Shown in pieces: positions 33,858 to 55,460 of a DNA stretch of 64,000 nucleotides. How positions within the stretch are numbered: the first letter of the stretch is position 1; each line of letters begins with the position of its first letter. Position numbers and translations under genes: made by a program. Under the pieces are notes generated by a model, which searched no databases, had not been told where the DNA came from, and saw only the letters and a program-made list of their open reading frames with translations. The DNA comes from Bacteroidales bacterium (lineage in GTDB: Bacteria > Bacteroidota > Bacteroidia > Bacteroidales > UBA932): assembly GCA_017561865.1 (NCBI GenBank), contig JAFZBH010000005.1, positions 28,302-92,301 on the forward strand. The letters are read 5' to 3'.

Positions 33858-35283
33858 GACCCTTCCCGTCCGGGTCGGTGAGTCGCTCGTGATCGGCGCC
33901 GGACATCCCATCGTCGTCCAGACGATGTGCAACACGCATACTTCCGATGTCGAAGCCACCGTAGCCCAGGTCCTGGAGCTTGCCGCGGCGGGGGCGCAGA
34001 TGGTCCGCATCACCGTGCCGGGCCGGCAAGACGTCCCGCACGTGGCGGCCATCCGGGAACGGCTGCACGCAGCGGGCTGCCGGGTGCCGCTGGTGGCGGA
34101 CATCCATTTCTCGTCCGAGACAGCCATCGCGGTGGCCCCTTACGTGGAAAAGGTCCGCATCAATCCCGGCAATTTCCACCCCGACCACGACCAGGCACGC
34201 GCGCAATTCGCCCGCTTCCTGGAGGTCTGCCGCGAACACGGCACCGCCGTGCGCGTGGGGCTCAACCACGGTTCGCTGGGCCGCTACATCACCGACCGCT
34301 ACGGCAACACCCCGCACGCGATGGCGATGGCGGCGATGGAGTGGCTGGAGATGTGCATCAAGGCGGATTTCCTCAACGTGGTGGTCTCGTTGAAGGCGAG
34401 CAACACGGTGGTGATGACCGAGGCCTACCGCGAGCTGGTCCGGCGGATGCAGGAGCGGGGTGTGGTGTTTCCCCTGCACCTCGGCGTGACCGAAGCCGGG
34501 GGCGGCGACAGCGGGCGCATCAAGTCCTGCGTGGGAATCGCGACATTGCTTCAGGAGGGCATCGGAGACACGATCCGCGTCTCTTTAACAGAGCCCCCTG
34601 TCAACGAGATCCCTGTAGCACAATACCTTGCCCGCTACGGCGCCGGCGAACGGAGTCTTCCAGACGGGCGGCCGGAAATTATTTTTCGGACAGGTTTGCC
34701 GAAAAACCAATTTCCGCTCCGCTGTCCGTCGCCGGCGCCTGCTTTGAGCGAAGCAAAGTCCGCATCAGCGGACCGGCCCGGTCCCGGGACTTTGCCAACG
34801 GCAAAGTCGGAAAGGGACTTGAGGGCCGCAAGGGGTTCGGGGGATATGCCCCCGTTTGAGCAGATGCTGGCAGCAGCCAGCATCTGGGGACCGAAGCTAT
34901 TGAAGCGGGAGATCGATGAGATTCCGGCGGAGGCGGGGCTGTCGGAGTACCTGCGGGACGAGATCATGCAGGCGGCCCGGCGCCGTTTCTACAAGCCCGA
35001 GTATATCGCCTGCCCCGGCTGCGGCCGCACGATGTACGACCTCCAGGCCACCTTCGAGGAGGTCCAGCGCCGCACCGCACACCTCAAGGGCCTGGTCATC
35101 GCCGTGATGGGCTGCATCGTCAACGGCCCCGGCGAGATGGCCGACGCCGACTGGGGCTATGTGGGAGAAGGCGGCGGACGCGTCACCATTTACCGCCGCA
35201 GCGAACCCGTCCTGCGGCACATCCCCGATTCCGAAGCCATCAACCGGCTGCTGGAGCTGATCGACAAAGAAAAGCAGGACTAA
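33844..35283 (+). CDS. ispG: 4-hydroxy-3-methylbut-2-en-1-yl diphosphate synthase
   Basis: VQTMCNT, PLVADIHF, RINPGN, HLGVTEAG, GDTIRVSL, CPGCGR, VMGCIVNGPGE. Confidence 0.96.
   Translation: MARIETLPVRVGESLVIGAGHPIVVQTMCNTHTSDVEATVAQVLELAAAGAQMVRITVPGRQDVPHVAAIRERLHAAGCRVPLVADIHFSSETAIAVAPYVEKVRINPGNFHPDHDQARAQFARFLEVCREHGTAVRVGLNHGSLGRYITDRYGNTPHAMAMAAMEWLEMCIKADFLNVVVSLKASNTVVMTEAYRELVRRMQERGVVFPLHLGVTEAGGGDSGRIKSCVGIATLLQEGIGDTIRVSLTEPPVNEIPVAQYLARYGAGERSLPDGRPEIIFRTGLPKNQFPLRCPSPAPALSEAKSASADRPGPGTLPTAKSERDLRAARGSGDMPPFEQMLAAASIWGPKLLKREIDEIPAEAGLSEYLRDEIMQAARRRFYKPEYIACPGCGRTMYDLQATFEEVQRRTAHLKGLVIAVMGCIVNGPGEMADADWGYVGEGGGRVTIYRRSEPVLRHIPDSEAINRLLELIDKEKQD
34639..34857. repeat. Palindrome-rich segment in frame inside ispG
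   Basis: 11-bp IR GGCGCCGGCGA/TCGCCGGCGCC (34639-34739) with an inner stem; GACTTTGCC-aac-GGCAAAGTC (34788-34808); CGGGGG..CCCCCG; codon bias breaks here. Confidence 0.65.
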
Positions 35284-37673
35284 ATATCCTTTTCCTGATA
35301 CGTGAACTGGGTCTGACCGATCTGGAAGCGTGAGCCGTGATACAGGCTGACCGGCTTGTCCACCTTCAGCGGCTTGCCGCCCACCGTCACGCCGTCCTCC
35401 AGCGCCACCAGACGCGGGACGCCCTTCTTCATCGTAATCTCGGCGTGAACCGGCGCCACCGCCCCCTGCAGGTCCCAGGTCAGCTGAAGCGAGCAGTCCA
35501 CGGACTTGCCGATGGAAACGACGGCGCCCGGGTTGGCCCGGAACCACTTGTACAGGGCGATGTCCATCGTCTTCACAGGCCCCTGCACTTGCAGGAAATA
35601 ATGCTCGGACTTGGGCGCGGCACGGGCAATCGACAAGACCATTCCGATCGCATAGATCATATAGCTGAAGAGCAGCAGGACCCGGAAATCGATCCCGATG
35701 TACATATAAAGGTATGACCACAGGTACATCGAGACCAAAGACACGCCCACCGCGACCAGGATGATCGACTTTTTCAGTTTCACGCGGGTGCCGTAAGTCG
35801 CCACGATCGCGATGAGGAAGCTGGACAGCGTCCACGGGATCAGATTGATGATGAATCCCGCCTCTTCGACGTGGAACGCCAGGCCGGCGGCGCTGGTCAC
35901 CAGATAAAGGAACCAGGAACCTGCCGCGGCGATCAGGGCCCGGACGAAGAAGTTGAGATAACTCAGCGGGTGCTTCTTCCGAATGGACAGGAAGGCGATG
36001 CCGAAGGTCAGGAAGAAACCGATCATGAAACCGTAGCTGGGAAGCTGGTTCAGGTGAGCGCTGTTGTTCCCGTCGGAGAAGAGTTCGGCAGGCAAGAGAT
36101 ATTCCAGTATATGCCTGGAGGTGAAATGCGTCCACACCGAGTAGACCACCCAGGCGCAGATGGAAGCGATCACTGCCATCAGCAGCCACTTCATATAGAA
36201 GGTCGCATTGCGCCTGTCGAACAGGTTCTGCCTGTCATAGAAATGTGAACCGGTCTTGCAGTGACGGCCATATTCAGGGCAATGATATTCGTTCTCGTCC
36301 CAGCACGACTTGTGCATCGTGTGTTCGCACTTCACGACCACTTTGTCCCCCTTGACGAACGGCGCCTTGCACAGGTAGCAGGACTCCCCGACCTCGATCC
36401 CCTCGACCACCATCTTGGAACCGGTATAGTCGATGACGTATTTGTGTTCGAACCATCTGTAGCGCAGATACGGGATCAGCAGTTGGCAGACCAGGTAGAT
36501 GGCCAGCAACAGCAGCAGACCGAGAATGATACCCTGCAGGATGATCGCATATAGCCGCACACCGTGGACGATGATCGGCCGGTAGAGCGTCCCCTCGTTG
36601 ATATGCGCCGTGGCGGAAGCGACCAGGTGATTGTCCTTGACGCTGTAGAAGAGGATCCTCAGCTGGTTGTTGTCGCCCCGGTAGATCTTGCCGTCGGGAT
36701 TGACGAAATCGAAACGGTTGGAAGCGATGTCCCGGCTGTATGAGCCCAGCATCGTATTCTCGAGCAGGGTCCAGCTGAAGCTTGGCAGGCTGGCGCCGCC
36801 CGTGCTCTCACACAGGGAAGTCAGCACGTTCGCTGCGTCAGTGTCCTCTCCCCGCTCGGCACCCCTGCCGAAGTTGACATAATAGACGTTCACGATTCCG
36901 TCGTCCAGGGCCTGGGAATGCAACATCTCGTTCGCCATCTCGAAATGGTCGGGATCCAGGGGCTGGTCGTTTTCGTCATACACCTTTCCGTCGGAGAATA
37001 TGACCAGCTTGCGTTGCGTGGCATCATCCCAGGGCTCGCCTCCCCGGGCGACCTCCCGGATCTTCGAAAGGATGGAGCGGTATAGGCGCTTGGAGCCTTC
37101 CGCACTCTTGAAATACTGGTTCAGGACATAATCGGTGGCTACCATAGTCGACGTGACCGACGCTCCTGACATAAAAGAAACGAAGAGATTGTCCTGGTTG
37201 AACACGGTCATCATCTCCTGCACGGCATCCCGCTCCGCATCCACCAGCACCTGCGGCAGCGACAGGTCCACGAGCACGAGGATCTTGACACCCAGTTCCT
37301 TGACCTGGTCACTCTCGGTATTCCAGGCTTTCACCAGCTGCGGCTGCACGCGGCGGGAAGTCCTGACACCGTCGTCATACTCCTCCACCTCGATCCGGAC
37401 GACGGTCGAGTCCGTCAGCGGATAGGGACCGATGTCACTGACCACTCCCGTCCAGACGGAGAAAGTCTTGTAGTCCGGCGAGAAGTCGACTTTGTTGACC
37501 ACCAGTTTATCCTGCCTGCCCGTATCCGCGGTCTTGATGCCCGGCATCCCCGAAGTCTCGAAGAGGCTCGTGGGATCGTCGACCCCCAGCCGGGACAGCA
37601 GCCCCGACTGGCACGCCGTCAGGCAGCACGCAGCCGCCAGGGGCAAGAGGAATCTGTACATCTTCTTTGTCAT
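35280..37673 (-). CDS. Membrane lipoprotein: vWA-like domain, TM, RING-H2/Prok-RING-like zinc finger, about 6 TMs, FHA-like domain (candidate membrane E3 ligase)
   Basis: Lipobox CLTAC; ILVLVDLS and LVIFSDG (vWA); CYLC-x13-CEHTMHKSCW-x6-CP-x5-C; C-terminal SIGKSVDC..VHAEI..LYHGSRFQIG. Confidence 0.75.
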   Translation of the reverse strand: MTKKMYRFLLPLAAACCLTACQSGLLSRLGVDDPTSLFETSGMPGIKTADTGRQDKLVVNKVDFSPDYKTFSVWTGVVSDIGPYPLTDSTVVRIEVEEYDDGVRTSRRVQPQLVKAWNTESDQVKELGVKILVLVDLSLPQVLVDAERDAVQEMMTVFNQDNLFVSFMSGASVTSTMVATDYVLNQYFKSAEGSKRLYRSILSKIREVARGGEPWDDATQRKLVIFSDGKVYDENDQPLDPDHFEMANEMLHSQALDDGIVNVYYVNFGRGAERGEDTDAANVLTSLCESTGGASLPSFSWTLLENTMLGSYSRDIASNRFDFVNPDGKIYRGDNNQLRILFYSVKDNHLVASATAHINEGTLYRPIIVHGVRLYAIILQGIILGLLLLLAIYLVCQLLIPYLRYRWFEHKYVIDYTGSKMVVEGIEVGESCYLCKAPFVKGDKVVVKCEHTMHKSCWDENEYHCPEYGRHCKTGSHFYDRQNLFDRRNATFYMKWLLMAVIASICAWVVYSVWTHFTSRHILEYLLPAELFSDGNNSAHLNQLPSYGFMIGFFLTFGIAFLSIRKKHPLSYLNFFVRALIAAAGSWFLYLVTSAAGLAFHVEEAGFIINLIPWTLSSFLIAIVATYGTRVKLKKSIILVAVGVSLVSMYLWSYLYMYIGIDFRVLLLFSYMIYAIGMVLSIARAAPKSEHYFLQVQGPVKTMDIALYKWFRANPGAVVSIGKSVDCSLQLTWDLQGAVAPVHAEITMKKGVPRLVALEDGVTVGGKPLKVDKPVSLYHGSRFQIGQTQFTYQEKDI

Positions 37674-37688: not shown

Positions 37689-38576
37689 TTATATGGTCGG
37701 ATAGTCATCCTTTCCATTCTGTTTCAGTGCGTCCTTGTATTTCTTCATATTCTGGCGCATCTCCCTGGCCGCCTTGATCTTAGCGTGCACCATATTGACG
37801 AACATCAGCAGGACCGCTACGGCCGCCAGGCCCAGCAGGTAGTCCTTGATCCGCTGGATGAGCGGCTTGTAGGTCATCGCCTGGATGGTCTCCGACTTGT
37901 TCTTCAGGATGGCGTAGGCGTCCTCCAGTTCATCCATATGGCGGGCCGAGACCACGTGAAGTTGCTCGGCTTCCCGGGCTTTCTCGAACTTCTCCTCCAC
38001 GGTGGCGAAGATCAGCTGCTCCTTCATCTTCTGCTTCTCCAGGAGCGGCGCCGTCCTGGGAGTCAACGACATCTCGAACGCCTTCTTGCCCAGGTTGTTG
38101 TATGTGCTGTCCAGGCTCTCCATATAGGTTTTCGCCTCGGAGAAGGCCCGCAGGGCCTGGAGCATCTGCTTGCGCACCTCGAGCGAATCCGCGGCTTCCT
38201 GCCGCATCATCTCGAAGTGTTCCACGCTGTCCATCAGGTCCTCATCCTGGGAGATCTCCCACTGCACGGTCGGATAGTAGTTGTCCCAGCGGACATTGAG
38301 CGAGCGAAGGTTCAGCTCCAGCGAGCGCAGACGGTTGTCGATCATCCGCAGGTAGCCGTCGGTAAGCTGGACGTCGTTCGATACCGGTAGCCGCGCCTTG
38401 CAGGAATCGTAGATCCGGCCCATTCCGTCCAGGAACTGGTTCAGCCGGCCTTGCACCGCCAGCCAGGTGGCCTCGTCGAGCGCAGGCTGGTTCCCCGCCT
38501 GCGCCCGGGCACAGACTCCCCCCTGGAGCATCGAGAGCCCCAGAACCAGGAGATATGTGACGAGCCTCCGGCGCAT
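37689..38576 (-). CDS. Exported helical/coiled-coil protein with C-terminal TM anchor
   Basis: Signal peptide MRRRLVTYLLVLG.., helical body, TM YLLGLAAVAVLLMFVNMV, basic tail ending YPTI. Confidence 0.7.
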   Translation of the reverse strand: MRRRLVTYLLVLGLSMLQGGVCARAQAGNQPALDEATWLAVQGRLNQFLDGMGRIYDSCKARLPVSNDVQLTDGYLRMIDNRLRSLELNLRSLNVRWDNYYPTVQWEISQDEDLMDSVEHFEMMRQEAADSLEVRKQMLQALRAFSEAKTYMESLDSTYNNLGKKAFEMSLTPRTAPLLEKQKMKEQLIFATVEEKFEKAREAEQLHVVSARHMDELEDAYAILKNKSETIQAMTYKPLIQRIKDYLLGLAAVAVLLMFVNMVHAKIKAAREMRQNMKKYKDALKQNGKDDYPTI

Positions 38577-38589: not shown

Positions 38590-39741
38590 TTATTGTCCGC
38601 AAGTCTTCCTGAAATACCGTTCCGCCTGTCGGAACACCCTGACGGCCTGCTGGTCCTCGGCCGTCTTGGGTTTCTGGCGCGTGAGCACATCGTTCACGTC
38701 CTTGATGATGTCCAGGCATTGCATCACCAGGTCCCGGCGTTCCAGGTCGTCCTTGCTCACCAGCCAGCGGGCCACGGCCTTGTCGATCTGACGGGCCTGC
38801 GAGTAGATCATCTTGGTGTCCAGGTCCCGGCCCGCATCCAGAAAGCCCTCCCCCTCGGCGCGCACCTTGACGCTCATCACGCCGATGGAATCCACATACT
38901 GGTTATACTGGTCCGTCAGACGCTGCAGATCCGGGCAGTCCGATGTGAGCTTCCTCACGGGGAACTGCGTCAGCAGCACCCGCCGGGTGTCGCCGAAGAT
39001 CTTAAGCCCCTCTTCGTTGGGCACCGTACCGCCGCCATAGGTCTTCTTGAATGCCGTAAAGGCCCCGCGGATCTCGTCCAGCAAGCCGCGGGCCGCAGCG
39101 ATTTCCTCCTCCTTGCCGAAACAGGGGTTGCGGCGGATCTCGATCTGGTATTTCGTGTTCAGGTCCCGGCCTTCCAGCAGTTCATATCCGTCGGGCTTGT
39201 TCCCTTTCCTTTCCAGCAGATACAGGTCGCGCAGGGTCACGGTGACGGTGTTGCGCTTCTGGAGGATGTCGAAACCCTGCTCGATATAGTCATTGACCAT
39301 CTTGTAATCCATCGGCACGGGCTGCAGGCCTTCGTATTCGATCCAGCGCTTGAACACATAGTTCCGGCGGGACTCCGGGAGCGTCTTTCTCAGCGAACGG
39401 GACAGTTTGAAGCGGCTGCCCGGCTCGGCCTCCGCCAGATACGGCAGGAGGTCCGGATGCAGACGGTGGCACTTGACCACCGACGAATAGCGTGTCGCTT
39501 CGCGGAAGACGAACAGGCTGCGATACGACAGCACGCTGACGGTCAGCGTGTTCTGCTGCTCGTCAAAGATGAACTTCACCATCACGTCCATATCCCGGCT
39601 GTCCTCTCCCAGGGAGATATGGTCCGTATAGGACGCGTCGTTGCTGACGGAAATCGTCTTGACGGTCTGCGCCGGGAGGGCGGCCGTCAGGCAGGATGCC
39701 AGCAGCAGGAGGACCAGTTTCTGTATGATAATCTTCTTCAT
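38590..39741 (-). CDS. Secreted hypothetical protein (beta-rich N-terminus, helical C-terminus)
   Basis: Signal peptide MKKIIIQKLVLLLLASCLTAALPA; tight operon spacing. Confidence 0.75.
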   Translation of the reverse strand: MKKIIIQKLVLLLLASCLTAALPAQTVKTISVSNDASYTDHISLGEDSRDMDVMVKFIFDEQQNTLTVSVLSYRSLFVFREATRYSSVVKCHRLHPDLLPYLAEAEPGSRFKLSRSLRKTLPESRRNYVFKRWIEYEGLQPVPMDYKMVNDYIEQGFDILQKRNTVTVTLRDLYLLERKGNKPDGYELLEGRDLNTKYQIEIRRNPCFGKEEEIAAARGLLDEIRGAFTAFKKTYGGGTVPNEEGLKIFGDTRRVLLTQFPVRKLTSDCPDLQRLTDQYNQYVDSIGVMSVKVRAEGEGFLDAGRDLDTKMIYSQARQIDKAVARWLVSKDDLERRDLVMQCLDIIKDVNDVLTRQKPKTAEDQQAVRVFRQAERYFRKTCGQ

Positions 39742-39746: not shown

Positions 39747-40334
39747 TCAGCCTTGTTCAAAAAAAATCCACTCCCGGGGCTCTCCCTGCCGGATCACCCA
39801 GGCCGCCACCTGCAGGTCCTCGGGATAAGGAGGCTCCGAGACGGCGTGATACAGATCGTATCTGAGATACTGCGCGATCCTGTCCACGCCCCAGGCGAGG
39901 TCCGTATAGGTGTCGCCCATATTCAGGCACACCCGCCCTGCCATCGGTCCGAACCAGCGGATGTTCGGATGCCAGGGATGCGGAAGGGGACGTCCCTGAG
40001 CGTCGGCGGTCAGGAAACGGAACACCGGCGAGCCGTCCACGCAAGGGTAATTGGCCGGCAGCTCGATTTCCATCCGGAAGGCGTCGGCGAACAGCGGCGG
40101 ATTCTCCACGCCGCGCTCCCCCATCCGTTCCACCTGCTCCACGCCGCAGATGCTGCGCAGGCGGTACTCCACCCGGTAACGGACGGGCAGGCCGGCGGCG
40201 TTGCAGGCGGCCACCTGCACGTCGATGTCCGGTCGGGCGCCGAATCTGTCCTCCAGCGTCCGCCATTCGTGGAGCAGGCGGCGGTTCCGCCCGCTCAGGG
40301 TTTCCGGTATGAAGTCCTGACTGCGCATCGTCAT
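39747..40334 (-). CDS. E2 ubiquitin-conjugating enzyme-like (UBC fold)
   Basis: RRLLHEW helix 1, FRMEIELPANYP, PVFRFLT, PWHPNI, GRVCLN (catalytic Cys codon at 39927-39929). Confidence 0.85.
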   Translation of the reverse strand: MTMRSQDFIPETLSGRNRRLLHEWRTLEDRFGARPDIDVQVAACNAAGLPVRYRVEYRLRSICGVEQVERMGERGVENPPLFADAFRMEIELPANYPCVDGSPVFRFLTADAQGRPLPHPWHPNIRWFGPMAGRVCLNMGDTYTDLAWGVDRIAQYLRYDLYHAVSEPPYPEDLQVAAWVIRQGEPREWIFFEQG

Positions 40335-40337: not shown

Positions 40338-40655
40338 TTAACCCGGGAAGGGATCCGGAACGAGGAACAGCGTGTCCCCGTTGTGTACGTTATAATCCGC
40401 AAGCGTCTGGTCCGCTTTCCCGATGCGGGGACGCAGGACCCGCACTTCGTGCACGGCAGGGTCCTCCACCCCGAAGAAGTAATCCATCGGGGCCCCCGTC
40501 TCGTCGATGGACGGGAAGTCGAAGATCAGCCGGCCGTCGCTGCCGATCGCGTGGCGCAGGTTGGTCATCAGCTGGCTGAGGGGCGCCTCGGGATTCACGA
40601 CCTTGAAGCGGACCTTCTTGTTCTTGTAAACGATATCAAGGAAATAGTCTTCCAT
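40338..40655 (-). CDS. Ubiquitin-like (beta-grasp) protein with free C-terminal Gly (alternative TTG start at 40670)
   Basis: QTLADYNVHNGDTLFLVPDPFPG* parallels ubiquitin [23 protein letters not shown]; 3 nt from the E2 gene. Confidence 0.8.
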   Translation of the reverse strand: MEDYFLDIVYKNKKVRFKVVNPEAPLSQLMTNLRHAIGSDGRLIFDFPSIDETGAPMDYFFGVEDPAVHEVRVLRPRIGKADQTLADYNVHNGDTLFLVPDPFPG

Positions 40656-40670
40656 ATCTCTTCTGTTCAA

Positions 40671-42401
40671 TTATTGTTCATCTTCTATGGTTATCTGCAC
40701 CCGGACGGGATAGATGCCGGTGCTCCGGACCTCGATCATCTTCCGCATCAGAAGTTCCGCCTGAGACAGTTTATCGGAGAAACTGCGCTTGACGAACGGA
40801 GTGCCGGCGAGTGATATTTCCGTCACGATCTCATACCCGCAACCGGCCCCGTCCTGCTGCTGGCGACGGTTCAGGCGCAGTCGCCTGACCAAGTCGCTCC
40901 CGATGCCATAACGCACCATCAATTCCTTGTAGCAGAACATCTTGATGTCGGCGAGCGTGACGATGCGGTCGCCGGTGGCCAGGGAGTATCGCATCAGGCT
41001 GGACAGGGCCCCTTCGTCCCGGATTTCGTCGGTGCCCGGCACGGGAGGGGCGATCAGGCGAAGCTGTCCCGGCTTGAAACCGGAAGGAGCCGTGAACGAA
41101 CTGGACTGACTCAGCTGGCCATTGACCGCCGCCCCGGCGGTGGTCAAGTACTTCACGTTCAGGCTGAAATCCTTTTTCTGCGAGCGATTGCGGGGCATCA
41201 GATAGACGCCCGAGACACTGCGCAGCACGTTTTGCGCGCTCTCCTCCCGGAGTTGGGAGAGCGCCGTTTCCAACTGATAGACCGTATTCTCGGTGAACGT
41301 CCCCTTCAACTGCTGATAGGCATAGAAGTCGGAACGGTACTTGGAAATGACGCAGCCCAGCAGTCTGAGCAGGCTGCCCTGATTGAAACGGTCGCCCGCC
41401 ACCCCCCGCACTTCCAGTTCCGTATTACCATAAATCTGGCTGTCCGACGGACGGACCAGATGCAGGAACTGGCGTGAACTCAGGTTCTTGTCCGGCGTCG
41501 GGCTGGACTGGCCGCCGGCAATCCGCGCAATGGGGCTATCTGAAGAAAGCGTGACCTCGTGCACCTGCGCGTTCACCAGCAGCACGGGATTCAGGCAAAG
41601 GCTGCTCTTGTCGAAACGGAAATCCTCCGGAATGCCCGTGAACTCGAACACCAGATCGATCTGTTCCGTTTCCTGCGGAATGAACTTCTTGGGATCGTGC
41701 CTTTCAATGCAGAACAGACGAATGTTCTGCCGGGCGAACAGGTCCATCGGGAGCAGGGACACATTGCAGACCTGCCCGAGATTATATGTCATCGAATCGG
41801 GCGCGAAGCACGGGGCCAAAGGCAACTCCGAATACTGCCAGGGCTTGATGAGCGGAAGGGGCTGCCCCTTGACGCTCACCGTCAGATTCCGGAAAACAGT
41901 ATCCTTGATGACAAAAGCGAACGACGAAAGGTCGGTCACCGGGTGCTTGAAACCCAGCGAGACCTTCCAGCGGCGGCCGTCCAGGCGCACGACGGAGCGG
42001 ACGTTCGCATTCAGCGCACGCGTTTCCAGCAGCGGGATGAAAGGATGTTCGGAAGAAAGCCTGAAGACACTGCTCTCCCCCAGCGACAATTCAGCCACAT
42101 CATCCTGCAGCGCCGCCTCGACGACTGCCGTCGCAGGCGTGGCGTGTCCCATCTCATAGGGGACCAGAATCCGGGAGAAATCCTCCAGCACTTCTGTTTT
42201 CAGCCGCTCCAGCTCGCCGTCCAGTTCGTTGGACTGATAGGCGAAGGCCATCATCAGCAGCGAGAATACGGGATCCTCGCCGATGCCCTCGAGGGCATCC
42301 GCCTGATCGCTCTGCTGCCAGATGGCCAGTGCCTCCCGCTTCAGTTCTTCGGCTTTTTGCCGCGTTTCAAATAACGTCTGTTTCATCTTTTCTATTTCCA
42401 A
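40671..42401 (-). CDS. tssF: T6SS baseplate subunit TssF-like (alternative ATG start at 42386)
   Basis: 576 aa; DPVFSLLMMAFA, LVP...ATPATAV, LNPVLLVN, YLTTAG.AVN, DRIVTLADIK.FC. Confidence 0.8.
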   Translation of the reverse strand: MEIEKMKQTLFETRQKAEELKREALAIWQQSDQADALEGIGEDPVFSLLMMAFAYQSNELDGELERLKTEVLEDFSRILVPYEMGHATPATAVVEAALQDDVAELSLGESSVFRLSSEHPFIPLLETRALNANVRSVVRLDGRRWKVSLGFKHPVTDLSSFAFVIKDTVFRNLTVSVKGQPLPLIKPWQYSELPLAPCFAPDSMTYNLGQVCNVSLLPMDLFARQNIRLFCIERHDPKKFIPQETEQIDLVFEFTGIPEDFRFDKSSLCLNPVLLVNAQVHEVTLSSDSPIARIAGGQSSPTPDKNLSSRQFLHLVRPSDSQIYGNTELEVRGVAGDRFNQGSLLRLLGCVISKYRSDFYAYQQLKGTFTENTVYQLETALSQLREESAQNVLRSVSGVYLMPRNRSQKKDFSLNVKYLTTAGAAVNGQLSQSSSFTAPSGFKPGQLRLIAPPVPGTDEIRDEGALSSLMRYSLATGDRIVTLADIKMFCYKELMVRYGIGSDLVRRLRLNRRQQQDGAGCGYEIVTEISLAGTPFVKRSFSDKLSQAELLMRKMIEVRSTGIYPVRVQITIEDEQ

Positions 42402-42850
42402 ACGTTGATGACAGATAAATACTGGTAATCGGCGCCGGTCTGCCGGATCACGCCCTTGACGGTCACGTAGATCTTGCGCTCCTCGCGGATATAGGTCATC
42501 GACACGGACACCTCTTCCAAACGTTTCTCATAGGATTCGATCGTCTGCTTAAGCTCCGCCGCAAAGGTGTTGAGATTGTTGGACGAACCGGATATCTTTT
42601 TGTCATAAAGACCCTCCCGACCTTCGAAATAGCCCTTCAGGCCGGAAGAATTGTAGACGACCCCTTCGTTCTCGTTGAAGATCTCGAAACGCAGGTTGTT
42701 GAAGACGAAGCCATATTGCGGATCGGCCGCGCAGCTGTAGCAGGGCGTGGCCATCAGCAGCGCCAGGGCGCTGTCGATCGCCGCCTTCGGGTCGTCCGTA
42801 CGGCCGAGGGCGCCCTTGTCAATCCGCAGTGGTATCGAAATGCTTCCCAT
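42392..42850 (-). CDS. tssE: T6SS baseplate TssE (gp25-like)
   Basis: AIDSALALLMATP...DPQYG...IESYEKRL gp25 signature. Confidence 0.8.
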   Translation of the reverse strand: MGSISIPLRIDKGALGRTDDPKAAIDSALALLMATPCYSCAADPQYGFVFNNLRFEIFNENEGVVYNSSGLKGYFEGREGLYDKKISGSSNNLNTFAAELKQTIESYEKRLEEVSVSMTYIREERKIYVTVKGVIRQTGADYQYLSVINVWK

Positions 42851-42857: not shown

Positions 42858-43997
42858 TCAGATCATCGGATAGAACTTCTCTTCCTCCTCTTCGGGGACA
42901 TACAGGGCGTTGTAGAGCGCATCGTACAGCTCCGGATAAAGCCGGCCGTACAGCGACGGATCCAGTTCCGCGTTCAGCGAATCGTGCAGACCCGGTTTGA
43001 CCTGTCCGTCGATGAATTCGGTCAGGCTGCCGGTCAGCTGCTCCCGCAACTCTTCGCGCAACTCTTCCTTGATCTGAAGAAGCAGCTGTTCGCGCAGTTC
43101 CGGATTCAGGCGCTCGTAGAGTTCGGCCTTGGCCTGGGCGAGCAGGGCTTCATAATCGATCGAATTGTCCTCCAGCACCACGCCGTCCAGAATGCTGGAA
43201 GCTCCCGAGAGATAGTCCGAAAGCCACTGCAGCCATTTCTGGACGTCATACGGGGTAGGCGTGGGCACGGCGACCGGTTTGTCGGTGTTCGGCGTGACGA
43301 TGTAATAGTCGATGGCCTGGGCGATTTCCTGCGTCAACTGGACGAAGTCGCGAACGCTCCCCTCCCAATTGTATCCCTTGAGCAGGAACAGGTAACGCAG
43401 GATGCACCGTTTTCCTTCGCCGTCCACGAGCTTTTCGTGCGCGGCGAGCGCCTGAAGCTTCTCCGCATAAGCCGCACCGAATCCGACGAAACGCGGATCC
43501 GCCGACAGCAGCAGGCAGGGCGGAATGTAGTCCGGATCGACCGCGAACACCCCGTCCGATACCCGGAAACGGGCCACGGGCAGCAGATCCTCCTTGGACA
43601 ACTCTCCCAGATCATGGATCGCATAGGCCTTCACGGTGCTCACATAAGGCACTTCCTCTTTCTCGAAAGCGTGTTCCTGCTCGCCATACGTGACGGTCAG
43701 ATAATACTCATTCCCGAACAGCATCGGAATCGTCAGCGACACCTTCTCGTCGGCGCTCAGGATCCTGCCGGACGGCAGGGCGGCCAGGCAGCGGAAGCGC
43801 TCGATCTCATAGGTATTCCTGACGAAGACGCCCTTGCAGCTGAACTCCGCTCCCGGCAACAACCCCAGTTGCGATCCGCCCAGGGCAGCGCGCACGGCCA
43901 CCTGCTGACGGAAATCCAGGTTCGCGTCCAGCTCCTTGAAGGTCTGGGCGGTAAGCTCCATTCCGGGCATCCAGTTAATTCTCGAATCGATATCCAT
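42858..43997 (-). CDS. tssK: T6SS baseplate TssK-like with repetitive helical C-terminus
   Basis: INWMPGMEL...F, LGLLP, C.A..PSGRI, DPDYIPPCL. Confidence 0.8.
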   Translation of the reverse strand: MDIDSRINWMPGMELTAQTFKELDANLDFRQQVAVRAALGGSQLGLLPGAEFSCKGVFVRNTYEIERFRCLAALPSGRILSADEKVSLTIPMLFGNEYYLTVTYGEQEHAFEKEEVPYVSTVKAYAIHDLGELSKEDLLPVARFRVSDGVFAVDPDYIPPCLLLSADPRFVGFGAAYAEKLQALAAHEKLVDGEGKRCILRYLFLLKGYNWEGSVRDFVQLTQEIAQAIDYYIVTPNTDKPVAVPTPTPYDVQKWLQWLSDYLSGASSILDGVVLEDNSIDYEALLAQAKAELYERLNPELREQLLLQIKEELREELREQLTGSLTEFIDGQVKPGLHDSLNAELDPSLYGRLYPELYDALYNALYVPEEEEEKFYPMI

Positions 43998-44004: not shown

Positions 44005-44787
44005 TTATATTTCCGTGTTGTAATCCAGAGTCAGTCCCTCTTTCAGCTCCGGTCCGGAGCCGTGCTGCCGGATGACGATTTCCAGGCGCACTTCCATCGG
44101 GATGAACCATTCGCCGAGGAAGGCCGTCAGCGGCTGCAGGTCGTTGTATAAAGCCTGGACCTCCCCGGCGGAGAGGCCGGGAATGAGCAGCTCGTAACGC
44201 GCGACCGGCAGCCAGCTGCGGGTGCTGTCCGTCCCGCTGTAGCGCCGCTGCGAGAACTGCACTTCGCAATGGAAAACGGCCGAGAGCAGATTGCGTACCA
44301 GGCCGAAATCCCCCCGCCGCTGCCGGATGCAGGGCAGCAGGACGGCGAATTCCCGCACGTACGGATTCTGCTCCGCCGCCAGGTCGAAGCCGAAGTAAGT
44401 CTTCAGGATATACTCCAACTTGCCGTCCAGCAGCTCCGACACCTCCCGCTCGGCTTTCAGTTGCCGGCGGAAGCGGAAGGTATCGATGGGCAGGAACGCC
44501 TCAGAGAGGACCTTGATCCGCTCTTCAAGCGCCTTGTGCTTATCCTGTCTGTCACCTTTCTTCAGTTCTTCCTCCGGAGACAGGAGCCCCTGCGGGAGCA
44601 GGGCCAGGAAGCCGTCCCGGGACAGGGACACGCTCTCCTCTTCGGGCTCCAGCGACAGGATGTCCCGGTTGTAGTTGCGGTAGAACGTCCCGTCGTGACG
44701 GGCGGTCCAGCGCTCCTCCAATTCCGGGTAGAGATAGTTCAAGAGCATCTCCGCCCCTATTTCCGGTATTTGCGTCAGCTCGTTCAT
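44005..44787 (-). CDS. tssG: T6SS baseplate TssG-like
   Basis: GTFYRNYNRDI, LSRDGFLALLPQGL, FLPIDT, LP..RRGD, WFIP. Confidence 0.78.
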   Translation of the reverse strand: MNELTQIPEIGAEMLLNYLYPELEERWTARHDGTFYRNYNRDILSLEPEEESVSLSRDGFLALLPQGLLSPEEELKKGDRQDKHKALEERIKVLSEAFLPIDTFRFRRQLKAEREVSELLDGKLEYILKTYFGFDLAAEQNPYVREFAVLLPCIRQRRGDFGLVRNLLSAVFHCEVQFSQRRYSGTDSTRSWLPVARYELLIPGLSAGEVQALYNDLQPLTAFLGEWFIPMEVRLEIVIRQHGSGPELKEGLTLDYNTEI

Positions 44788-45914
44788 TGCATTTCCATAT
44801 AATAGTCTCCCGTGTCCGCCGTGACGTACAGGACGTCCCGCTCAGGGATACCCAGCTGTGAGAGCGTGAGGCCGGGATACGGGAAAGTCCCGTCAATCAC
44901 CCGCCATTCGTTTTGATACAGGGCGCTCAGCGGGATGCCCCGCCAGGCGGGATCCTGCTCCAGCCGGGCCGCGACGGCCCTGCCGGGCAGCATCACTTCC
45001 AGCCGCCCCTCCCCTTCGCGCCGCAGCACCTCATCCACGAAGCAGTCGCCCGTCAGAGCGATGCTCACCTGCTCCGAGCGCAGTTCCGTCCGCAGGTACG
45101 CAAGCGCCTCCGCCACGCTCATCGCAGCGTGCAGCGAAGAAGGCCGTACCGGCTCCCAGCAGTCGTGCACGGGGCAGTCGGGATCATAAGCCTTGAAGTC
45201 CACCAGCCGGGTGCTCAACCGCTCCCCTTCGTAGTAAAACATCTTGCCGCACAGACTCGTCAGGCTCCCGTCCGCGAGCGCTTCGGGATGCAGGAGTTTC
45301 AGCGCTTCCTGCACCTGCACGGCACCGATTACCGAAGCGATCATCGGGGTTGTCGGTGCCTTGCCCGCTTCTTCTTCGCGGCGGATCACGCCCGAACAGG
45401 GCTGACGCCGCGCCATATCCTTGAGGCCCTCCGGGCCCAGGTTGCAGGCATAGCAGTTCTCGCCGGGAGCGAAGACGCGGACCGTCCCTTCCAGGGTGCC
45501 GATGCCGCCGTCCACCCAGGGGATGCCCGCGCGCATACACAGGCGGTTGATGCAGTAGCGCGCCCAGCGGTTGTCCACGCAGCCGATCACCACGTCCATT
45601 TCCCGGGCCAGGCCCAGGCCCACGTCATAGGCGATGTCCCCCCGGATGGTCTGCACCTCCAGGGCGGGATTCATCCCCTTTAGCCGGTCCCGGGCCGCAT
45701 CCACTTTGTAGCGGCCCGACTCGGCATCCTCCTTCGTGAACAGGACGCTGCGGCTGAGGTTCCCGACCTCCACACGGTCGAAATCGACCAGGATCAGATG
45801 CTCCGCACCCAGCAGCGCGAGGTTCTTGAGCACCTCGTTGCCCAGGGCGCCGCATCCGACCACCATCAGGCGGGCGGCAGCGATCCTGTCCTGTATGAAG
45901 GGGTTATTCGTCAT
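44784..45914 (-). CDS. E1-like (ThiF/UBA) ubiquitin-activating enzyme with C-terminal ubiquitin-fold-like extension
   Basis: GCGALG, DFDRVEVGNLSRSVLF, YK, GCVDN, CYAC, QPCSG (candidate catalytic Cys), DCPVH; C-terminal TLSQLGIPERDVLYV. Confidence 0.88.
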   Translation of the reverse strand: MTNNPFIQDRIAAARLMVVGCGALGNEVLKNLALLGAEHLILVDFDRVEVGNLSRSVLFTKEDAESGRYKVDAARDRLKGMNPALEVQTIRGDIAYDVGLGLAREMDVVIGCVDNRWARYCINRLCMRAGIPWVDGGIGTLEGTVRVFAPGENCYACNLGPEGLKDMARRQPCSGVIRREEEAGKAPTTPMIASVIGAVQVQEALKLLHPEALADGSLTSLCGKMFYYEGERLSTRLVDFKAYDPDCPVHDCWEPVRPSSLHAAMSVAEALAYLRTELRSEQVSIALTGDCFVDEVLRREGEGRLEVMLPGRAVAARLEQDPAWRGIPLSALYQNEWRVIDGTFPYPGLTLSQLGIPERDVLYVTADTGDYYMEMQ

Positions 45915-46617
45915 CGTCGGGGTTCCACTTCATCTTCAGGCCGGCCTGAGCTTCCTGGGCCGAATCCTCTTCTTCCTGTTTCTTGGCCTCTTTCTCAGCT
46001 TGCTCCTCCTGATAGCGGGCATAAGCCTCTTCAATCTCCTTCTCCTTATCGGCACGGAACGTTTTGCTCATCTCGTCATACCTGTCGCGGATCTGTTGAA
46101 GTGAATCCTTGGCCTCATCCACCTCCTCACCTGGTGCATCTATCAGTTTTACCACGATTCGGGCGGCATAGTCCGCCATAGTTGCATCCAGGATGCCATT
46201 ACATGCATCGGAAAGCATCGCCACCGCTTGCATTAAAACGTCGTGCCGGTCTTTATTGACCACCGGCATCGTCGCTACGATATATTGAACCCTGTCTTTG
46301 TCGACCGAATCCGGATTGGCATCCCGTATATCCAAATCAAACTCCGGATGGGCTATCTTGATTCCTTTTACGAGGGGAATCAGCAGGTCAGGGCTCAATG
46401 GCAGAATCTCAAACTGGTCATCACGATCTTTGGGATTCCGGGCTTTGGCCACATTCTCAATCGGTTCGTCGCCGTCCTCCGTTTTGACCATAATCGCAAG
46501 GAGCGCTTCAGGCAAAGCCTTGATACACAAGTTCATATAGCGGTAGTTCAAGAGAGAGACATAGCCTCCCATCTTCTTCTGCGCCTCGTCCAGCAAACTG
46601 ATGATCGATTTTCTCAT
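45904..46617 (-). CDS. Divergent ribosome recycling factor (RRF)-fold paralog with acidic tail
   Basis: Collinear with RRF: EAQKKM..., A.PEALL.I.V, PIENVA, MPVVNKDRH..L, LQQIRD....ADKEKEI. Confidence 0.65.
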   Translation of the reverse strand: MRKSIISLLDEAQKKMGGYVSLLNYRYMNLCIKALPEALLAIMVKTEDGDEPIENVAKARNPKDRDDQFEILPLSPDLLIPLVKGIKIAHPEFDLDIRDANPDSVDKDRVQYIVATMPVVNKDRHDVLMQAVAMLSDACNGILDATMADYAARIVVKLIDAPGEEVDEAKDSLQQIRDRYDEMSKTFRADKEKEIEEAYARYQEEQAEKEAKKQEEEDSAQEAQAGLKMKWNPDDDE

Positions 46618-46622
46618 CTCGC

Positions 46623-47963
46623 TTATTTTTTCTTCATTTTCAAATATACGTCCACTTGGTTATTGCCCCGGGGCCGGACCGTTTTCGTCCTGGGCTTGAA
46701 ACCCGGCTTCGAGAGCGTGACTTCATAGCTCTTCGTGGCATCGAGCCGGACCAGCTGCGGGGTCTGACCGAAATCCTTCCCGTCGATACGGATCCCGGCG
46801 CCCGTCACGTTGCTGTGGATGTTCAGCAGGCCATATCCCGTCCCGGGAGCGGAGAGGTTGATCTCCTGCGGGAAATCATCCTCAATCCACAGCCAGGTGG
46901 CGGCCGACTCCCGGCCGTCCCGCAGGGTCTGCGCCAGATGGAATCCGGGCTCCAGCGCCCCTTCCCACTGCCCCAGGCCCTTCCGCTCCCGGTCCACCCA
47001 GATCTCCGTCCGGGCGTCCGCAGCGGACAGCCTCACATTCGAGCCGGCCTCCAAGGCAGGCTGACCGGCGTTCTCCTCCCCTGCCTCCAAGGGCTCCAGA
47101 GGCGCCATGACCGGCACGGGGTCCGTCTTGCGCAGGTCCCGCGGGGACAGGTCGCGTTCGCTGAGCTCCAGCACCTTCTTCTCGGCGCGCCCCACGAACA
47201 GGAGCGAATCGTACCAACAGCGCTCTTCCCGGAACAGGGCCACCCGGTGATACCCTTCGGCCAAGCGGTAGCTTGTGGCCTCCTCTTTCCGGATCGGCGT
47301 GCCGTCGACGAATAGATCCCCGCCGGAAGCGGGCATCTTCACGCTCAGGAAAGAATAGAACGGCTGCAGCGTCACCCGGATGTCCGTCCGGACGCTGTCC
47401 GAGAGCGTGAACACATCCTCCACGGCTTCGTGGAAGGGAGCCTCGATGCGGTAACTGTGGCTGCCCACCGGAAGGTAATACTCCAGGGTCTCCTGCCGGA
47501 CCGGCCGGGTTACCGAATCCAACTGCAGCAATGCATTGGAAGGGCTGATGTGGAAGACCACCCACTGCTTGGGAGACTTGTAGTCTTTCGTCGGATCGAC
47601 GGCAATCAACAGCGCCTGGTAGTGTTTTCTGCGCTTCAGGTACTTACCGTCGGGGACGCGCCACACGAGCTGGCCGTACTCCGGATGCTTGATGGTCACG
47701 TAAGCCGTCTTGTGGGGCAGCGCAACCGTGATCACGCCTTCGCCCTCCTCGGCCGCCGCCGGTTTCTTCGCTCCGGAAAAAAAGGAGAATCCCTTCTCAT
47801 CGGTAATGAAATCCAACAGGGCGGAAGCCTTGTCCACCGGGACTTCGGCACGCTTCCAGAGCGGCCGGTGCTGAATGCCGAACTCCTCCACCCGCATCTG
47901 CTGTGCCGAAACGGGCAGCAGACAGGCTAAGAGGAGAAACAGGGTCAGGACCGGACGCTTCAT
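46623..47963 (-). CDS. Secreted PEGA-domain protein
   Basis: Signal peptide MKRPVLTLFLLLACLLPVSA; NIHSNVTGAGIRIDG..FGQTP..VTLSKPGF. Confidence 0.8.
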   Translation of the reverse strand: MKRPVLTLFLLLACLLPVSAQQMRVEEFGIQHRPLWKRAEVPVDKASALLDFITDEKGFSFFSGAKKPAAAEEGEGVITVALPHKTAYVTIKHPEYGQLVWRVPDGKYLKRRKHYQALLIAVDPTKDYKSPKQWVVFHISPSNALLQLDSVTRPVRQETLEYYLPVGSHSYRIEAPFHEAVEDVFTLSDSVRTDIRVTLQPFYSFLSVKMPASGGDLFVDGTPIRKEEATSYRLAEGYHRVALFREERCWYDSLLFVGRAEKKVLELSERDLSPRDLRKTDPVPVMAPLEPLEAGEENAGQPALEAGSNVRLSAADARTEIWVDRERKGLGQWEGALEPGFHLAQTLRDGRESAATWLWIEDDFPQEINLSAPGTGYGLLNIHSNVTGAGIRIDGKDFGQTPQLVRLDATKSYEVTLSKPGFKPRTKTVRPRGNNQVDVYLKMKKK

Positions 47964-47973
47964 CGGCTTTCGT

Positions 47974-48363
47974 TTATTTTCCTTCGGCCAGGCAAACGTT
48001 GCCCGGCATCGAAACACTGATGTTTCCGCCCCAGTTGCACATACACTTGCAGTTGTCCAGCAGGGCCGGCATGTTGGAGATCTTCACCTGGCCGCCGGGC
48101 GCCCAGGGCGCCGCAACCACCGGGATGCAGGGCATCGGGGTCAGCACGCCCATCGCCGCCGACGTAGCGGAAGCCACCGTCGGGTTAGATAGCGACTGGC
48201 ACATCCCGAAAGGCATGATGTTGACCATCGGCTTGTTGTCCATAATGTTCCCGATGGGTTTGTTCTGGACCTTCGGGCGCATCGGATCCACCACCATAAA
48301 GGACGACGGCGCCATTCCGAAACTGCATTGGAGCAGCGCTCCTGCACAAACGAACTTTCCCAT
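47974..48363 (-). CDS. DUF4280 PAAR-like spike tip protein
   Basis: VCAGALLQCSFG, NIMPFGMC, PMPCIP....W, C.C.WGG.I. Confidence 0.9.
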   Translation of the reverse strand: MGKFVCAGALLQCSFGMAPSSFMVVDPMRPKVQNKPIGNIMDNKPMVNIMPFGMCQSLSNPTVASATSAAMGVLTPMPCIPVVAAPWAPGGQVKISNMPALLDNCKCMCNWGGNISVSMPGNVCLAEGK

Positions 48364-48367
48364 ATCG

Positions 48368-50161
48368 CTACTCCTTCTTTTCGGGTGCGTCTTCGGCCTT
48401 CAGCTTCGCGCTCAGGCTGCCGCCGCCCCCGGCGCCGGGAACGGCGATACCGTCACTGATATTGGAGGACTTGAAGGAACTCTTCGCCTCGAGGTTGTCG
48501 ATCGTGGCCTTGGGGGCCTTCAGTTCGTCCTTCACCTCGGTCTTACCGTTGATGGTGGTGGCACCGAAAACCTCGGTCTTGCTGCCTCCCACCGCGGCGT
48601 TGCCGCCGGCAAGCTGCAGGGCGGCCTTGCCTTCGTCCTGCTGAGCCTCGAAGGTCTTGTCGGCAAACAGGCCCAGCTCCTCGCTGACGGCCTGCAGCTT
48701 CTTGGACTTGATGTCTTTTTTCTTGGCGCCCAGGAACATCTTTTCCGCCAGAAGTAGCATCGAACTGTCCGCGGCGAGCTTGTCGTCGGTGCGCTTTTCC
48801 TTGTCCACGTCCATCGAGCGCACGGAGAGATCCTTGGCGTTGAGTGCGATGCTGCCCGTGGCCTTGCCTTCCGTGTCGGTGGCGGACACATCGACCTTTT
48901 CGGTCCGGATGGTGAAGGCGCTGTCTTTGGTGAGGGCCTTCTCCTCCAGCTTGCCGTCCTTGAGCTCGCTGTCCACGGACTCTAGCGTAACGGTCTTGGA
49001 GCGCACGAGGACGTCGCCCTCGGCGGGGTACTGACCGGACTCGAGCTCTCCCTTGTCGTTGTATTTCAGCTCTTTGCTGTTGACCGTGGAGACTTCCACC
49101 GTTTGCGCGTTCACAAGCACCTTGCCTTCCGGCTGCAGGGCGCCTTCGGCGTCCAAAGACCGAATCTCGATGTTGTTGGCCAGAATGCCCACACCAGCCT
49201 CCGGGTTGTCCCGCAGATTGCCGTCGCCGTCGTGACTGACGATATCCACCCGTTCGCCGACAATGGAGACAGCTGCACCGGTGGGCTTCTGCTTGAAATC
49301 GTCACCGCCCTTGATAGCATCTTTTTCGGCCTTCAGGCAGGTAATCTGGCGATTCAGCTCCGCCAGACGGGACAGGGCACTGGTCGCAGATGCATAACCC
49401 TGATAAAGAGCCGGAGCAAGGGATTCCATCAAGTCGCTCATATCGGAAAGAGCACCGACATTGGACCGGAGTTCCATCACGTCCGAAGTCATCTTTTCAT
49501 TCTTTTCAAACAAATCCTGGATGGCTTTCGCCGACGAACCAAAGGCTTTGATACCGTCCTTCACCTCCGTTTCCACGGTAGATTTCAATGTTTCCAGTTG
49601 CTTGACCTGTTCATCAAGGCTCGCACTCAGCCCTTCGGCAGATGCACTGGCGTCCACGACCAGCTGCCTATCGGCGTGTATAGAGACACTGCCTTCACCC
49701 GCAGAAGCGGGTGTTTGTGAAAAGACACCTGACGAATCATTCGCTGCGAGCACCACCTGCCTTGCCTGGCTCACCACTTCGGACAAAGAGCCCACAACAG
49801 ATTCGAGGCCGTCAATACCCGGATCCACCGCCGTCTGGCGGATGCTGGCGGCACGCGTGTGCACGCTGCCGCTTTCACCCACGCCTTCCAGCGCCACGCT
49901 CTGGCCGCGCAATATCACGACCGAACTGCCATCTCCCATCAGGACACCGTCCCGGTCCACATTGCCCAGGATGATCTCCGGAGCGGAGATCACGACACGG
50001 TGTTCGTCCCGGAGATAATAGCCGCCACCCATCGCACTGAATATCTCCGATTTCATCTGACGGACTTCTTCTTTGTGCTGACGGATTTCTTCCAGGTCCT
50101 TTGAAACGCTGGACTGGAAATCCTCCAGAGCTTTCTTCCAATCGTCAAAATTGTATTCCAT
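48368..50161 (-). CDS. Hypothetical spike-associated protein: beta-strand repeats interrupted by a coiled coil
   Basis: Between vgrG and PAAR; repeated short strands (VVISAPEIILG, VSIHADRQL, VLVNAQTVEV, IALNAKDLSV). Confidence 0.6.
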   Translation of the reverse strand: MEYNFDDWKKALEDFQSSVSKDLEEIRQHKEEVRQMKSEIFSAMGGGYYLRDEHRVVISAPEIILGNVDRDGVLMGDGSSVVILRGQSVALEGVGESGSVHTRAASIRQTAVDPGIDGLESVVGSLSEVVSQARQVVLAANDSSGVFSQTPASAGEGSVSIHADRQLVVDASASAEGLSASLDEQVKQLETLKSTVETEVKDGIKAFGSSAKAIQDLFEKNEKMTSDVMELRSNVGALSDMSDLMESLAPALYQGYASATSALSRLAELNRQITCLKAEKDAIKGGDDFKQKPTGAAVSIVGERVDIVSHDGDGNLRDNPEAGVGILANNIEIRSLDAEGALQPEGKVLVNAQTVEVSTVNSKELKYNDKGELESGQYPAEGDVLVRSKTVTLESVDSELKDGKLEEKALTKDSAFTIRTEKVDVSATDTEGKATGSIALNAKDLSVRSMDVDKEKRTDDKLAADSSMLLLAEKMFLGAKKKDIKSKKLQAVSEELGLFADKTFEAQQDEGKAALQLAGGNAAVGGSKTEVFGATTINGKTEVKDELKAPKATIDNLEAKSSFKSSNISDGIAVPGAGGGGSLSAKLKAEDAPEKKE

Positions 50162-50169
50162 AGCTCATA

Positions 50170-54051: not shown

Positions 54052-54055
54052 CTGT

Positions 54056-54951: not shown

Positions 54952-54964
54952 CGGATAAAATTAC

Positions 54965-55000: not shown

Positions 55001-55016
55001 AAATTAGTTAAATGAT

Positions 55017-55415: not shown

Positions 55416-55460
55416 AATATGGTTCCTCCTAATTATTTAATTCTTACTTGTCTAACCAGA

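Follow-up and report, generated by a model that had tools for sequence, protein, structure and literature searches.

The locus examined here raises the question of how a type VI secretion system (T6SS) of the Bacteroidales may be held at the inner membrane when TssN is not found, and what the genes of a ubiquitin-like cascade do among those of its baseplate. The window, that is, the whole stretch of DNA analysed, comprises 64,000 nt of contig JAFZBH010000005.1 (GCA_017561865.1), positions 28,302-92,301, from a Bacteroidales bacterium of the lineage UBA932. The T6SS cluster of this window ends in a gene for a membrane protein with a RING finger and an FHA domain, which we consider to be, probably, a co-opted inner-membrane RING-type E3 that replaces TssN as baseplate hub in a Bacteroidales T6SS. 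The protein is a likely ligase because its RING motif is conserved and because it is encoded beside a complete kit for a ubiquitin-like protein (Ubl), in a T6SS cluster without the usual membrane-anchor gene. Its open reading frame (ORF) and parts are given below (TM, transmembrane; MIDAS, metal ion-dependent adhesion site).

35280..37673, minus strand: membrane RING-FHA protein, candidate E3, 797 amino acids, whole ORF
37611..37673, minus strand: signal peptide and lipobox LTAC (C21), clade-specific
36558..37508, minus strand: predicted periplasmic region, residues 56-372, with beta-strand segments on both sides of the vWA domain
Residues about 121-315, within the periplasmic region: vWA domain with a degenerate MIDAS (DLSLP...SDG)
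36474..36530, minus strand: TM1, residues 382-400, predicted to run out-to-in and followed by a basic stretch
36258..36380, minus strand: C3H2C3 RING-H2-like finger, residues 432-472
35619..36197, minus strand: six more predicted TM helices, residues 493-685
35283..35606, minus strand: FHA domain, residues 690-797, without the phospho-Thr-binding Arg and Ser

The original prediction, made from the letters of the DNA, had described a RING-H2-like ligand pattern at 36258-36380, and the pattern is there exactly as claimed: C432-Y-L-C435-x13-C449-E-H451-x2-H454-x2-C457-W458-x6-C465-P466-x5-C472. A homolog search with the 797-amino-acid protein returned 417 proteins, the best 120 of which are nearly all full length; 95 of these 120 were aligned with the query and one distant homolog (close homologs, n=97), and a distant set (n=116) was made of full-length 50%-cluster representatives from the best 150 of 461 matches. 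Six zinc ligands are kept in 97/97 close homologs, and C465 and C472 in 96/97. Each ligand is also kept in 112-116 of the 116 distant representatives, and the complete eight-ligand pattern in 106 of them, a conservation that, judged from these alignments, is far beyond chance. Moreover, the RING is the best-conserved domain, with an identity of 79% among close homologs (vWA 44%, TM 43%) and of 59% among distant ones (vWA 26%, TM 23%). When a RING-only profile was compared with the PDB, RING E3 domains filled the top 20 of 38 matches (best E 0.001), the nearest relatives being RING-H2 E3s with weak scores, and the first 15 Foldseek matches of a RING-only model were RING domains as well (probability 0.69-0.99). 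Of the positions expected to contact E2, the hydrophobic one before the second ligand (L/F/Y434), the Trp (W458, shifted by three) and the Pro (P466) are conserved, and the basic linchpin (K473) varies. The central helix is one turn short and a five-residue insert follows the C-P, so spacing the last ligand pair C-P-x5-C as opposed to the C-x2-C of RING-H2; the part available of a review gives a longer insert in this pair as a trait of prokaryotic RINGs (PMC11354881).

The proposed order of domains, from a lipoprotein signal through vWA, TM, RING and six TM helices to FHA, was confirmed by Pfam for the FHA, Foldseek for the vWA, hydropathy and the lipobox. The FHA domain lies above the Pfam cut-off (E 1.5e-6). 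The Pfam scan of the protein gave no vWA match, and the vWA assignment is supported by a Pfam VWA match in the homolog of genome G050 (E 1.2e-6) and by the full-length AlphaFold model (mean predicted local distance difference test, pLDDT, 80.6). Foldseek of this model gave 51 matches at E up to 0.001, with vWA structures (among them the domains of ArnB, ITIH1, Rpn10 and CMG2) and FHA structures. The model shows a long helix (374-412), six helices (493-685) and a beta-rich C-terminal domain; the six-TM region has no fold match among the 50 Foldseek ranks listed. Alignment-averaged hydropathy places seven hydrophobic segments past the signal peptide (382-400, 497-515, 546-564, 580-598, 606-624, 637-655 and 665-683), and the AlphaFold helices agree with them. 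Lys plus Arg per sequence in the successive loops amount to 0.8 / 5.2+2.7 / 1.3 / 3.5 / 0.3 / 3.2 / 1.3 / 2.0, an alternation that by the positive-inside rule predicts the vWA domain outside and the RING and FHA in the cytoplasm, in line with the original prediction. The lipobox Cys, C21, is kept in 96/97 close homologs; a lipoprotein nature of the whole family was considered and rejected, since six aligned distant homologs lack this Cys. Among NCBIfam models, a TagH FHA match below threshold (TIGR03354) was the sole one for the RING protein, and the ESM Atlas gave matches above 0.9 to unnamed clusters only.

FHA domains that bind phospho-Thr usually carry GR and SxxH residues. The FHA domain of the RING protein has G722-K723 and A740-P-V-H743 in their place, and the GK and APVH noticed originally, without GR and SRxH, are borne out by the alignment of 97, in which position 723 is K in 84 and R in 12, and A740 is kept in 96. 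Among the 116 distant representatives, R is found in 37 and S in 12. As far as these residues can tell, the FHA domain of the RING protein is phospho-independent.

The RING gene closes a block with the order E1-tssG-tssK-tssE-tssF-Ubl-E2-x-x-RING, in which x stands for two genes of no known family. The features upstream of it, in the order of their coordinates, are the following.

37689..38576, minus strand: single-pass membrane protein with a signal peptide, a predicted coiled coil, a TM helix and a Lys-rich tail; no known family
38590..39741, minus strand: exported protein of 383 amino acids, conserved in the block; no known family
39747..40334, minus strand: E2 (HPN motif, catalytic Cys136), whose nearest relative of solved structure is UBE2K (E 2.6e-4)
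40338..40670, minus strand: Ubl ending PDPFPG (free terminal Gly)
40671..42401, minus strand: divergent TssF; profile match to canonical TssF of the T6SSiii type
42392..42850, minus strand: TssE (gp25)
42858..43997, minus strand: TssK ending FYPMI
44005..44787, minus strand: TssG, 7 bp from tssK
44784..45914, minus strand: E1 (ThiF family) with GxGxxG, a zinc motif and a conserved downstream Cys
45904..60016, minus strand: rest of the same-strand T6SS cluster

The last of these stretches holds ClpV/TssH, TssB, TssC, four Hcp-like genes, VgrG, a 597-amino-acid ORF, a PAAR-like DUF4280 gene, a PEGA protein and an ORF resembling ribosome recycling factor (RRF). Counted from ClpV at 60016, the RING gene is the last of 22 same-strand genes (gaps -11 to 65 bp), and the convergent ispG overlaps it by 4 bp at the stop codons (35280-35283), which marks the edge of the cluster. 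The ubiquitin genes are interleaved with the baseplate genes at gaps of -4 to 15 bp, and the E1 gene overlaps the start of tssG by 4 bp. In 43 GTDB loci (Bacteroidales, Prevotella, Parabacteroides, Alistipes and others, mostly from rumen and gut metagenome-assembled genomes, MAGs), the gene order is intact in 41/41 that reach E1, the other two ending at contig edges. A metagenome set seeded with E2 (best 80 of 505 matches) has the RING gene in 61/61 loci that extend far enough downstream, and tssF in 66/66. Furthermore, the HPN..C of E2 is kept in 44/44, the Cys pattern of E1 in 42/43 (one truncated), and the terminal Gly of the Ubl in 43/43 loci and 94/94 distinct sequences. E1, E2, a Gly-ended Ubl and the RING protein share, in this way, one operon with intact catalytic residues; the motif, its conservation, the fold similarity, the topology and this linkage, all read from sequences and models, give good support to the view of the protein as a candidate E3.

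A JAB/MPN peptidase was found neither in the window's genome (56% complete) nor in any of the 80 E2-seeded loci. One of 45 genomes of the window's clade, the Prevotella MAG G074, has a JAB at a second locus; this MAG carries two distinct ubiquitin-T6SS loci, one of the JAB-less clade (L021) and one JAB-bearing (L161-L162). In genome G276 and in the G477-type clade, JAB adjoins the RING-protein gene.

The T6SSiii core is represented by TssB, C, D, E, F, G, H, I and K, TssB being identified from its position and size only. The Bacteroidota Pfam models recognise both TssC and TssD above cut-off; TssC is divergent (332 vs 729-770 bits). TssN was above cut-off in 0/46 genomes with the RING-protein gene, which gave two weak sub-threshold matches. 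Of 400 genomes sampled evenly across the order, nine were TssC-positive: six with TssN and no RING gene, two with the RING gene and no TssN (G276 and G477, near-complete, with the RING gene beside the T6SS), and a fragmented one with neither. TssO was found in none of three genomes (G276, G477 and the window's) and in 2/2 controls; TssR was likewise not found in these three, with a model that found it in 1/2 controls. According to the part available of Bongiovanni et al. (PMC10781749), tssN lies systematically between tssK and tssG in Bacteroidota T6SSiii, TssN co-purifies TssK, and its cytoplasmic domain is modelled as a ubiquitin-like fold. In the window the slot between tssG and tssK is empty. 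Docking of the RING protein to the baseplate, as originally proposed, thus gains indirect support from the empty slot, from TssN not being found and from a TssK tail in common with a membrane neighbour (see below). The analogy with TssR held for the type of domain, and no sequence relationship was detected: PF17643 (TssR) had no match in the Pfam scans, and a derivation of the vWA domain from TssR was rejected at -3.8 bits when the family profile was run against a 636-amino-acid stretch of one TssR.

The single-pass neighbour of the RING gene ends DYPTI and TssK ends FYPMI, the two proteins being unrelated. A P-x-I C-terminus was found in 88/92 distinct TssKs, the four exceptions ending P-x-L/M, and in 96/98 single-pass neighbours, the two misses being mis-assigned RING fragments; it is also present on both proteins in the distant genome G276. 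None of 20 other families of the loci ends in P-x-I, nor do any of 5 canonical TssKs or 273 ORFs of canonical regions, and the ending occurs in 8 of 2079 long ORFs of the window's genome. One kept terminal motif on two unrelated proteins implies a common reader. The nearest candidate for it would be the putatively phospho-independent FHA domain, and the TssK trimer could also play this part. In addition, the Lys-rich tail of the single-pass neighbour has at least 3 Lys in its last 36 residues in 46/46, and this protein is a candidate partner or substrate.

Other short stretches were seen in the G477-type loci, where E2 has a conserved tail ending ISLSI (L162, 849-1511; L163, 5584-6240; L164, 14719-15378) and where, in the TM-JAB protein, the TM helix is followed by an I-I/V-V/I-R-R-K stretch; modules of this sort may make recurrent use of short linear motifs. 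Just downstream of tssF, the same type of locus encodes membrane proteins that look Ser/Thr kinase-like by eye (L056, 1361-2830 and 6303-7625; L161, 4403-5929; L164, 148-1635).

The RING protein was also detected in four genomes without TssC (G050, G216, G621 and G802), and the three with enough DNA have the operon E1-Ubl-E2-(TM)JAB-RING protein. Since the module is kept together without a T6SS, the partners of the RING protein would be the ubiquitin enzymes. All four copies have no lipobox. In G621 (L148, 15347-17725) and G802 (L150, 16325-18670) the RING is without its first CxxC and both His, D-P-I-T replacing the CxxC, and E1, Ubl, E2 and JAB still adjoin; this variant is U-box-like. The sequences suggest that a self-contained membrane ubiquitin module was probably recruited by a T6SS lineage. 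The idea that a Ubl ending in PG marks the loss of JAB was rejected, as the Ubl of G621 ends VPG beside an intact JAB. The single-pass neighbour was also considered as a JAB protein minus its peptidase, which was rejected for want of homology to three TM-JAB proteins and because G276 has both genes. In G050, the T6SS-free module (L005, 1548-20000, and L006) immediately precedes genes of the SrfB and Virul_Fac (SrfC-like) families, with a second JAB and a Ubl-fused protein about 15 kb further.

In the mechanism that we propose, E1 would adenylate the ready-made Gly-ended Ubl and hand it to Cys136 of E2, and the RING, kept close to the membrane on the cytoplasmic side by its place right after TM1, would bind E2~Ubl and stimulate transfer; we infer every one of these binding and transfer steps, and those that follow, from gene content and residues. 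The phospho-independent FHA would act as a substrate or docking site, its ligand most likely being the hydrophobic-P-x-I tails of TssK and the single-pass neighbour. Ubl on membrane-proximal proteins could then form a beta-grasp docking surface in TssN's place or serve as a licence for baseplate assembly, and the periplasmic vWA region, with its decayed MIDAS, would mainly play a structural part alongside the two exported proteins encoded upstream. Because no JAB de-tagger was found in the clade, tagging may be one-way. In its fullest form, this would be a third kind of T6SS membrane complex, built by covalent Ubl tagging, in which the FHA of the E3 reads P-x-I tails, the attached Ubl replaces the fused domain of TssN and tagging is one-way in the JAB-less clade; we put it forward tentatively and regard it as more doubtful than the E3-and-hub role itself.

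Several observations weigh against the reading of the protein as E3 and hub. The zf-RING_2 (E 0.0013) and Prok-RING_1 (E 0.0076) models do fall on the RING, at residues 428-471, but both are below the Pfam cut-off; for Prok-RING_1 (PF14446, cut-off 29.1 bits) the query scores 16.6 and six homologs 15.8-21.2, all seven below it, and in the distant homolog of G050 no other RING family model matches better (E 0.0029). No Foldseek match of the RING-only model reaches E 0.001, and its pLDDT is 70.6, falling to 53-67 from the last ligand pair onward, so that this moderate model proves neither a cross-brace geometry nor which residue is the eighth ligand, C472 or the nearby conserved H477. The conserved Trp of eukaryotic RING-H2 comes three residues later than W458, which directly follows the sixth ligand, and the Lys after the last ligand (K473), a position where Lys/Arg is reported to matter in the part available of PMC5654768, is kept in 65/97 close and 46/116 distant homologs. 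The P-x-I motif was chosen after being noticed; in four loci of a third clade, the G477-type, TssK ends GKQI, GKRI, GPNI and GKKI, and the slot-equivalent membrane proteins of these loci have no P-x-I. Finally, the loci are kin, so their counts show stability and not independent events, and most genomes are incomplete MAGs, so absences mean only that a gene was not found.

The atypical Trp position and the variable linchpin would fit a non-catalytic membrane scaffold in which the zinc finger is purely structural and the Ubl serves, unattached, as a beta-grasp adaptor in the manner of EsaB/YukD of the T7SS or of the cytoplasmic domain of TssN; the loss of the first zinc site in two T6SS-free homologs points the same way, and secretion systems do use unconjugated Ubls, according to the part available of PMC11217815. 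However, EsaB/YukD are described, in the portion of the sources at hand, as being without a terminal Gly-Gly, whereas the Ubl here is Gly-ended throughout, E1 and E2 keep their catalytic residues, the RING is the best-conserved domain, and even the zinc-less homologs still stand beside E1, Ubl, E2 and JAB, which makes such a scaffold unlikely. Likewise improbable, in our view, is a real ligase with other targets (effector or cargo loading, membrane-protein clearance or phage proteins) whose genes are simply expressed along with the T6SS. The target of Bil is a structural protein of the virion (PMC10557695, in the part available), the module exists without a T6SS in four genomes, and the extracytoplasmic domain-TM-RING layout resembles that of the eukaryotic PA-TM-RING ligases, to which some of the nearest RING matches belong; on the other hand, the genes are interleaved and nearly translationally coupled with those of the baseplate, and TssN, essential in B. 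fragilis, was not found, so that another membrane hub is needed. Moreover, PADLOC models match E1 alone, via a generic adenylation domain, and neither the RING protein, E2 nor Ubl.

We give still less credence to the periplasmic sensor of the original prediction, in which the vWA domain would detect a ligand or envelope damage and switch the ligase on, as an analogue of PpkA/Fha1, the phosphorylation checkpoint of proteobacterial T6SS. The layout is receptor-like, with TM1 joining vWA to RING, the acidic residues D136 and D228 are kept in 115/116 and 96/116 of the distant set, and a JAB eraser stands beside the RING gene in other clades. The MIDAS motif is DxSxS...T...D. In the query it is degenerate (DLSLP), its third position is P in 66 and S in 21 of the 97 close homologs, and the T6SS-linked copies examined have DLSLP, DLSIP or DKSAN; it is intact (DxSGS) in the four copies without a T6SS and in 12/116 distant representatives. 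Its loss in T6SS copies and retention in T6SS-free ones weaken the sensor step, which proved the weakest part of the original proposal; the vWA domain is also among the least conserved parts, and the search of the window's clade revealed no JAB that could reset such a switch.

Prokaryotic RING family 1, reportedly described by Burroughs, Iyer and Aravind in 2011, resembles the candidate E3 in being a membrane-bound RING beside E1, E2, Ubl and JAB genes. The RING protein here is C3H2C3, in contrast to the C4HC3 cited in the part available of PMC11354881, and its locus lies inside a T6SS baseplate operon, with JAB not found in the clade. The Ub/E1/E2/srfp/Rpn11 cascade of 'Ca. Caldiarchaeum subterraneum' (PMC5654768, in the part available) has a separate E1, an HPN-type E2, a RING-H2 E3 and a Ubl in one operon, and may serve by analogy as a works-like model for the locus. 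Yet srfp is a small soluble RING, as opposed to a 7-TM candidate E3 with vWA and FHA, and the pro-Ub of that cascade needs processing, whereas the Ubl encoded here already has its single Gly (PG) at the end. T6SSiii with TssNQOPR, as presented in the part available of PMC10781749, shares the core and requires a hub that has TM helices and a docking domain in the cytoplasm, along with partners in the periplasm, a vWA among them; the present locus differs in having no detected TssN, TssO or TssR, an interleaved ubiquitin cascade, a divergent TssC and another TssK tail. Bil (BilABCD), Bub and Cap2 of type II CBASS are likewise bacterial E1/E2/Ubl conjugation systems, but they stand in a defence-island context, and no RING E3 is described for them in the portions available of PMC10557695 and PMC11601596. 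The eukaryotic PA-TM-RING ligases (RNF13, ZNRF3 and RMR1) combine an extracytoplasmic domain, a TM helix and a cytoplasmic RING-H2; this is an analogy of layout only, with about 20% identity in the RING, and the protein here has vWA instead of PA, six more TM helices and an FHA. TagH/Fha of proteobacterial T6SS also place an FHA in a T6SS cluster (TIGR03354, E 1.8e-5), but the match covers the FHA only, at 24.7 bits vs a cut-off of 120, and here the domain is fused to a membrane RING and its phospho-binding residues are missing.

In the literature searched, no ubiquitin cascade in a T6SS was described; the stand-alone architecture may already be covered by Burroughs 2011/2012, and the supplements of the Burroughs papers and of PMC10781749 (systems lacking membrane-complex genes) may bear on novelty. 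Neither 'ubiquitin' nor 'GA4' occurs in García-Bayona 2021 (PMC8102008), and PMC3417536 held nothing relevant. A prokaryotic RING tri-ligase is mentioned in PMC7159879 solely within a vWA-MoxR/FtsH system. The part available of PMC10557695 describes RING E3s as rare in bacteria, with operons that are uncharacterised, and the conjugation systems tested in bacteria are, in the portions available of PMC10557695 and PMC11601596, linked to phage defence or without known role. In this context, the locus offers an E1-E2-RING cascade of eukaryotic type for which candidate substrates can be named and the tail motif can be tested, sheath assembly and Hcp secretion giving a clear read-out, and it has a cultured carrier in Parabacteroides distasonis An863 (L032). 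It points to a rumen and gut Bacteroidales T6SS lineage that may be anchored without TssN and so missed by TssN-requiring screens, and it suggests a stand-alone membrane ubiquitin module in the course of being recruited into a contractile machine. If the tail-reading tagging model were true, the protein would be a bacterial RING E3 that acts on native substrates and recognises them by a defined motif.

Within the T6SS cluster, the 237-amino-acid ORF at 45904-46617 (minus strand) gave a sub-threshold match to RRF (E 0.001); the ORF is conserved close to the PAAR-like gene in many such T6SS loci, sometimes inverted. At 48368-54051 (minus strand) lie a VgrG of 1293 amino acids, whose long C-terminal extension belongs to no known family and whose GC content is about 0.49 vs 0.58-0.6 in the surroundings, and, after it, the conserved 597-amino-acid ORF, which has no Pfam match. 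Of the four tandem Hcp-like genes at 54056-55853 (minus strand), three are above the TssD cut-off and the 159-amino-acid one has no Pfam match. Elsewhere in the window, 20308-25784 encodes a protein with an N-terminal TM helix and a weak RyR match, an exported protein with PEGA repeats and a membrane protein with a TIR domain (TIR_2, E 1.8e-20); they may form a conflict or signalling module of their own.

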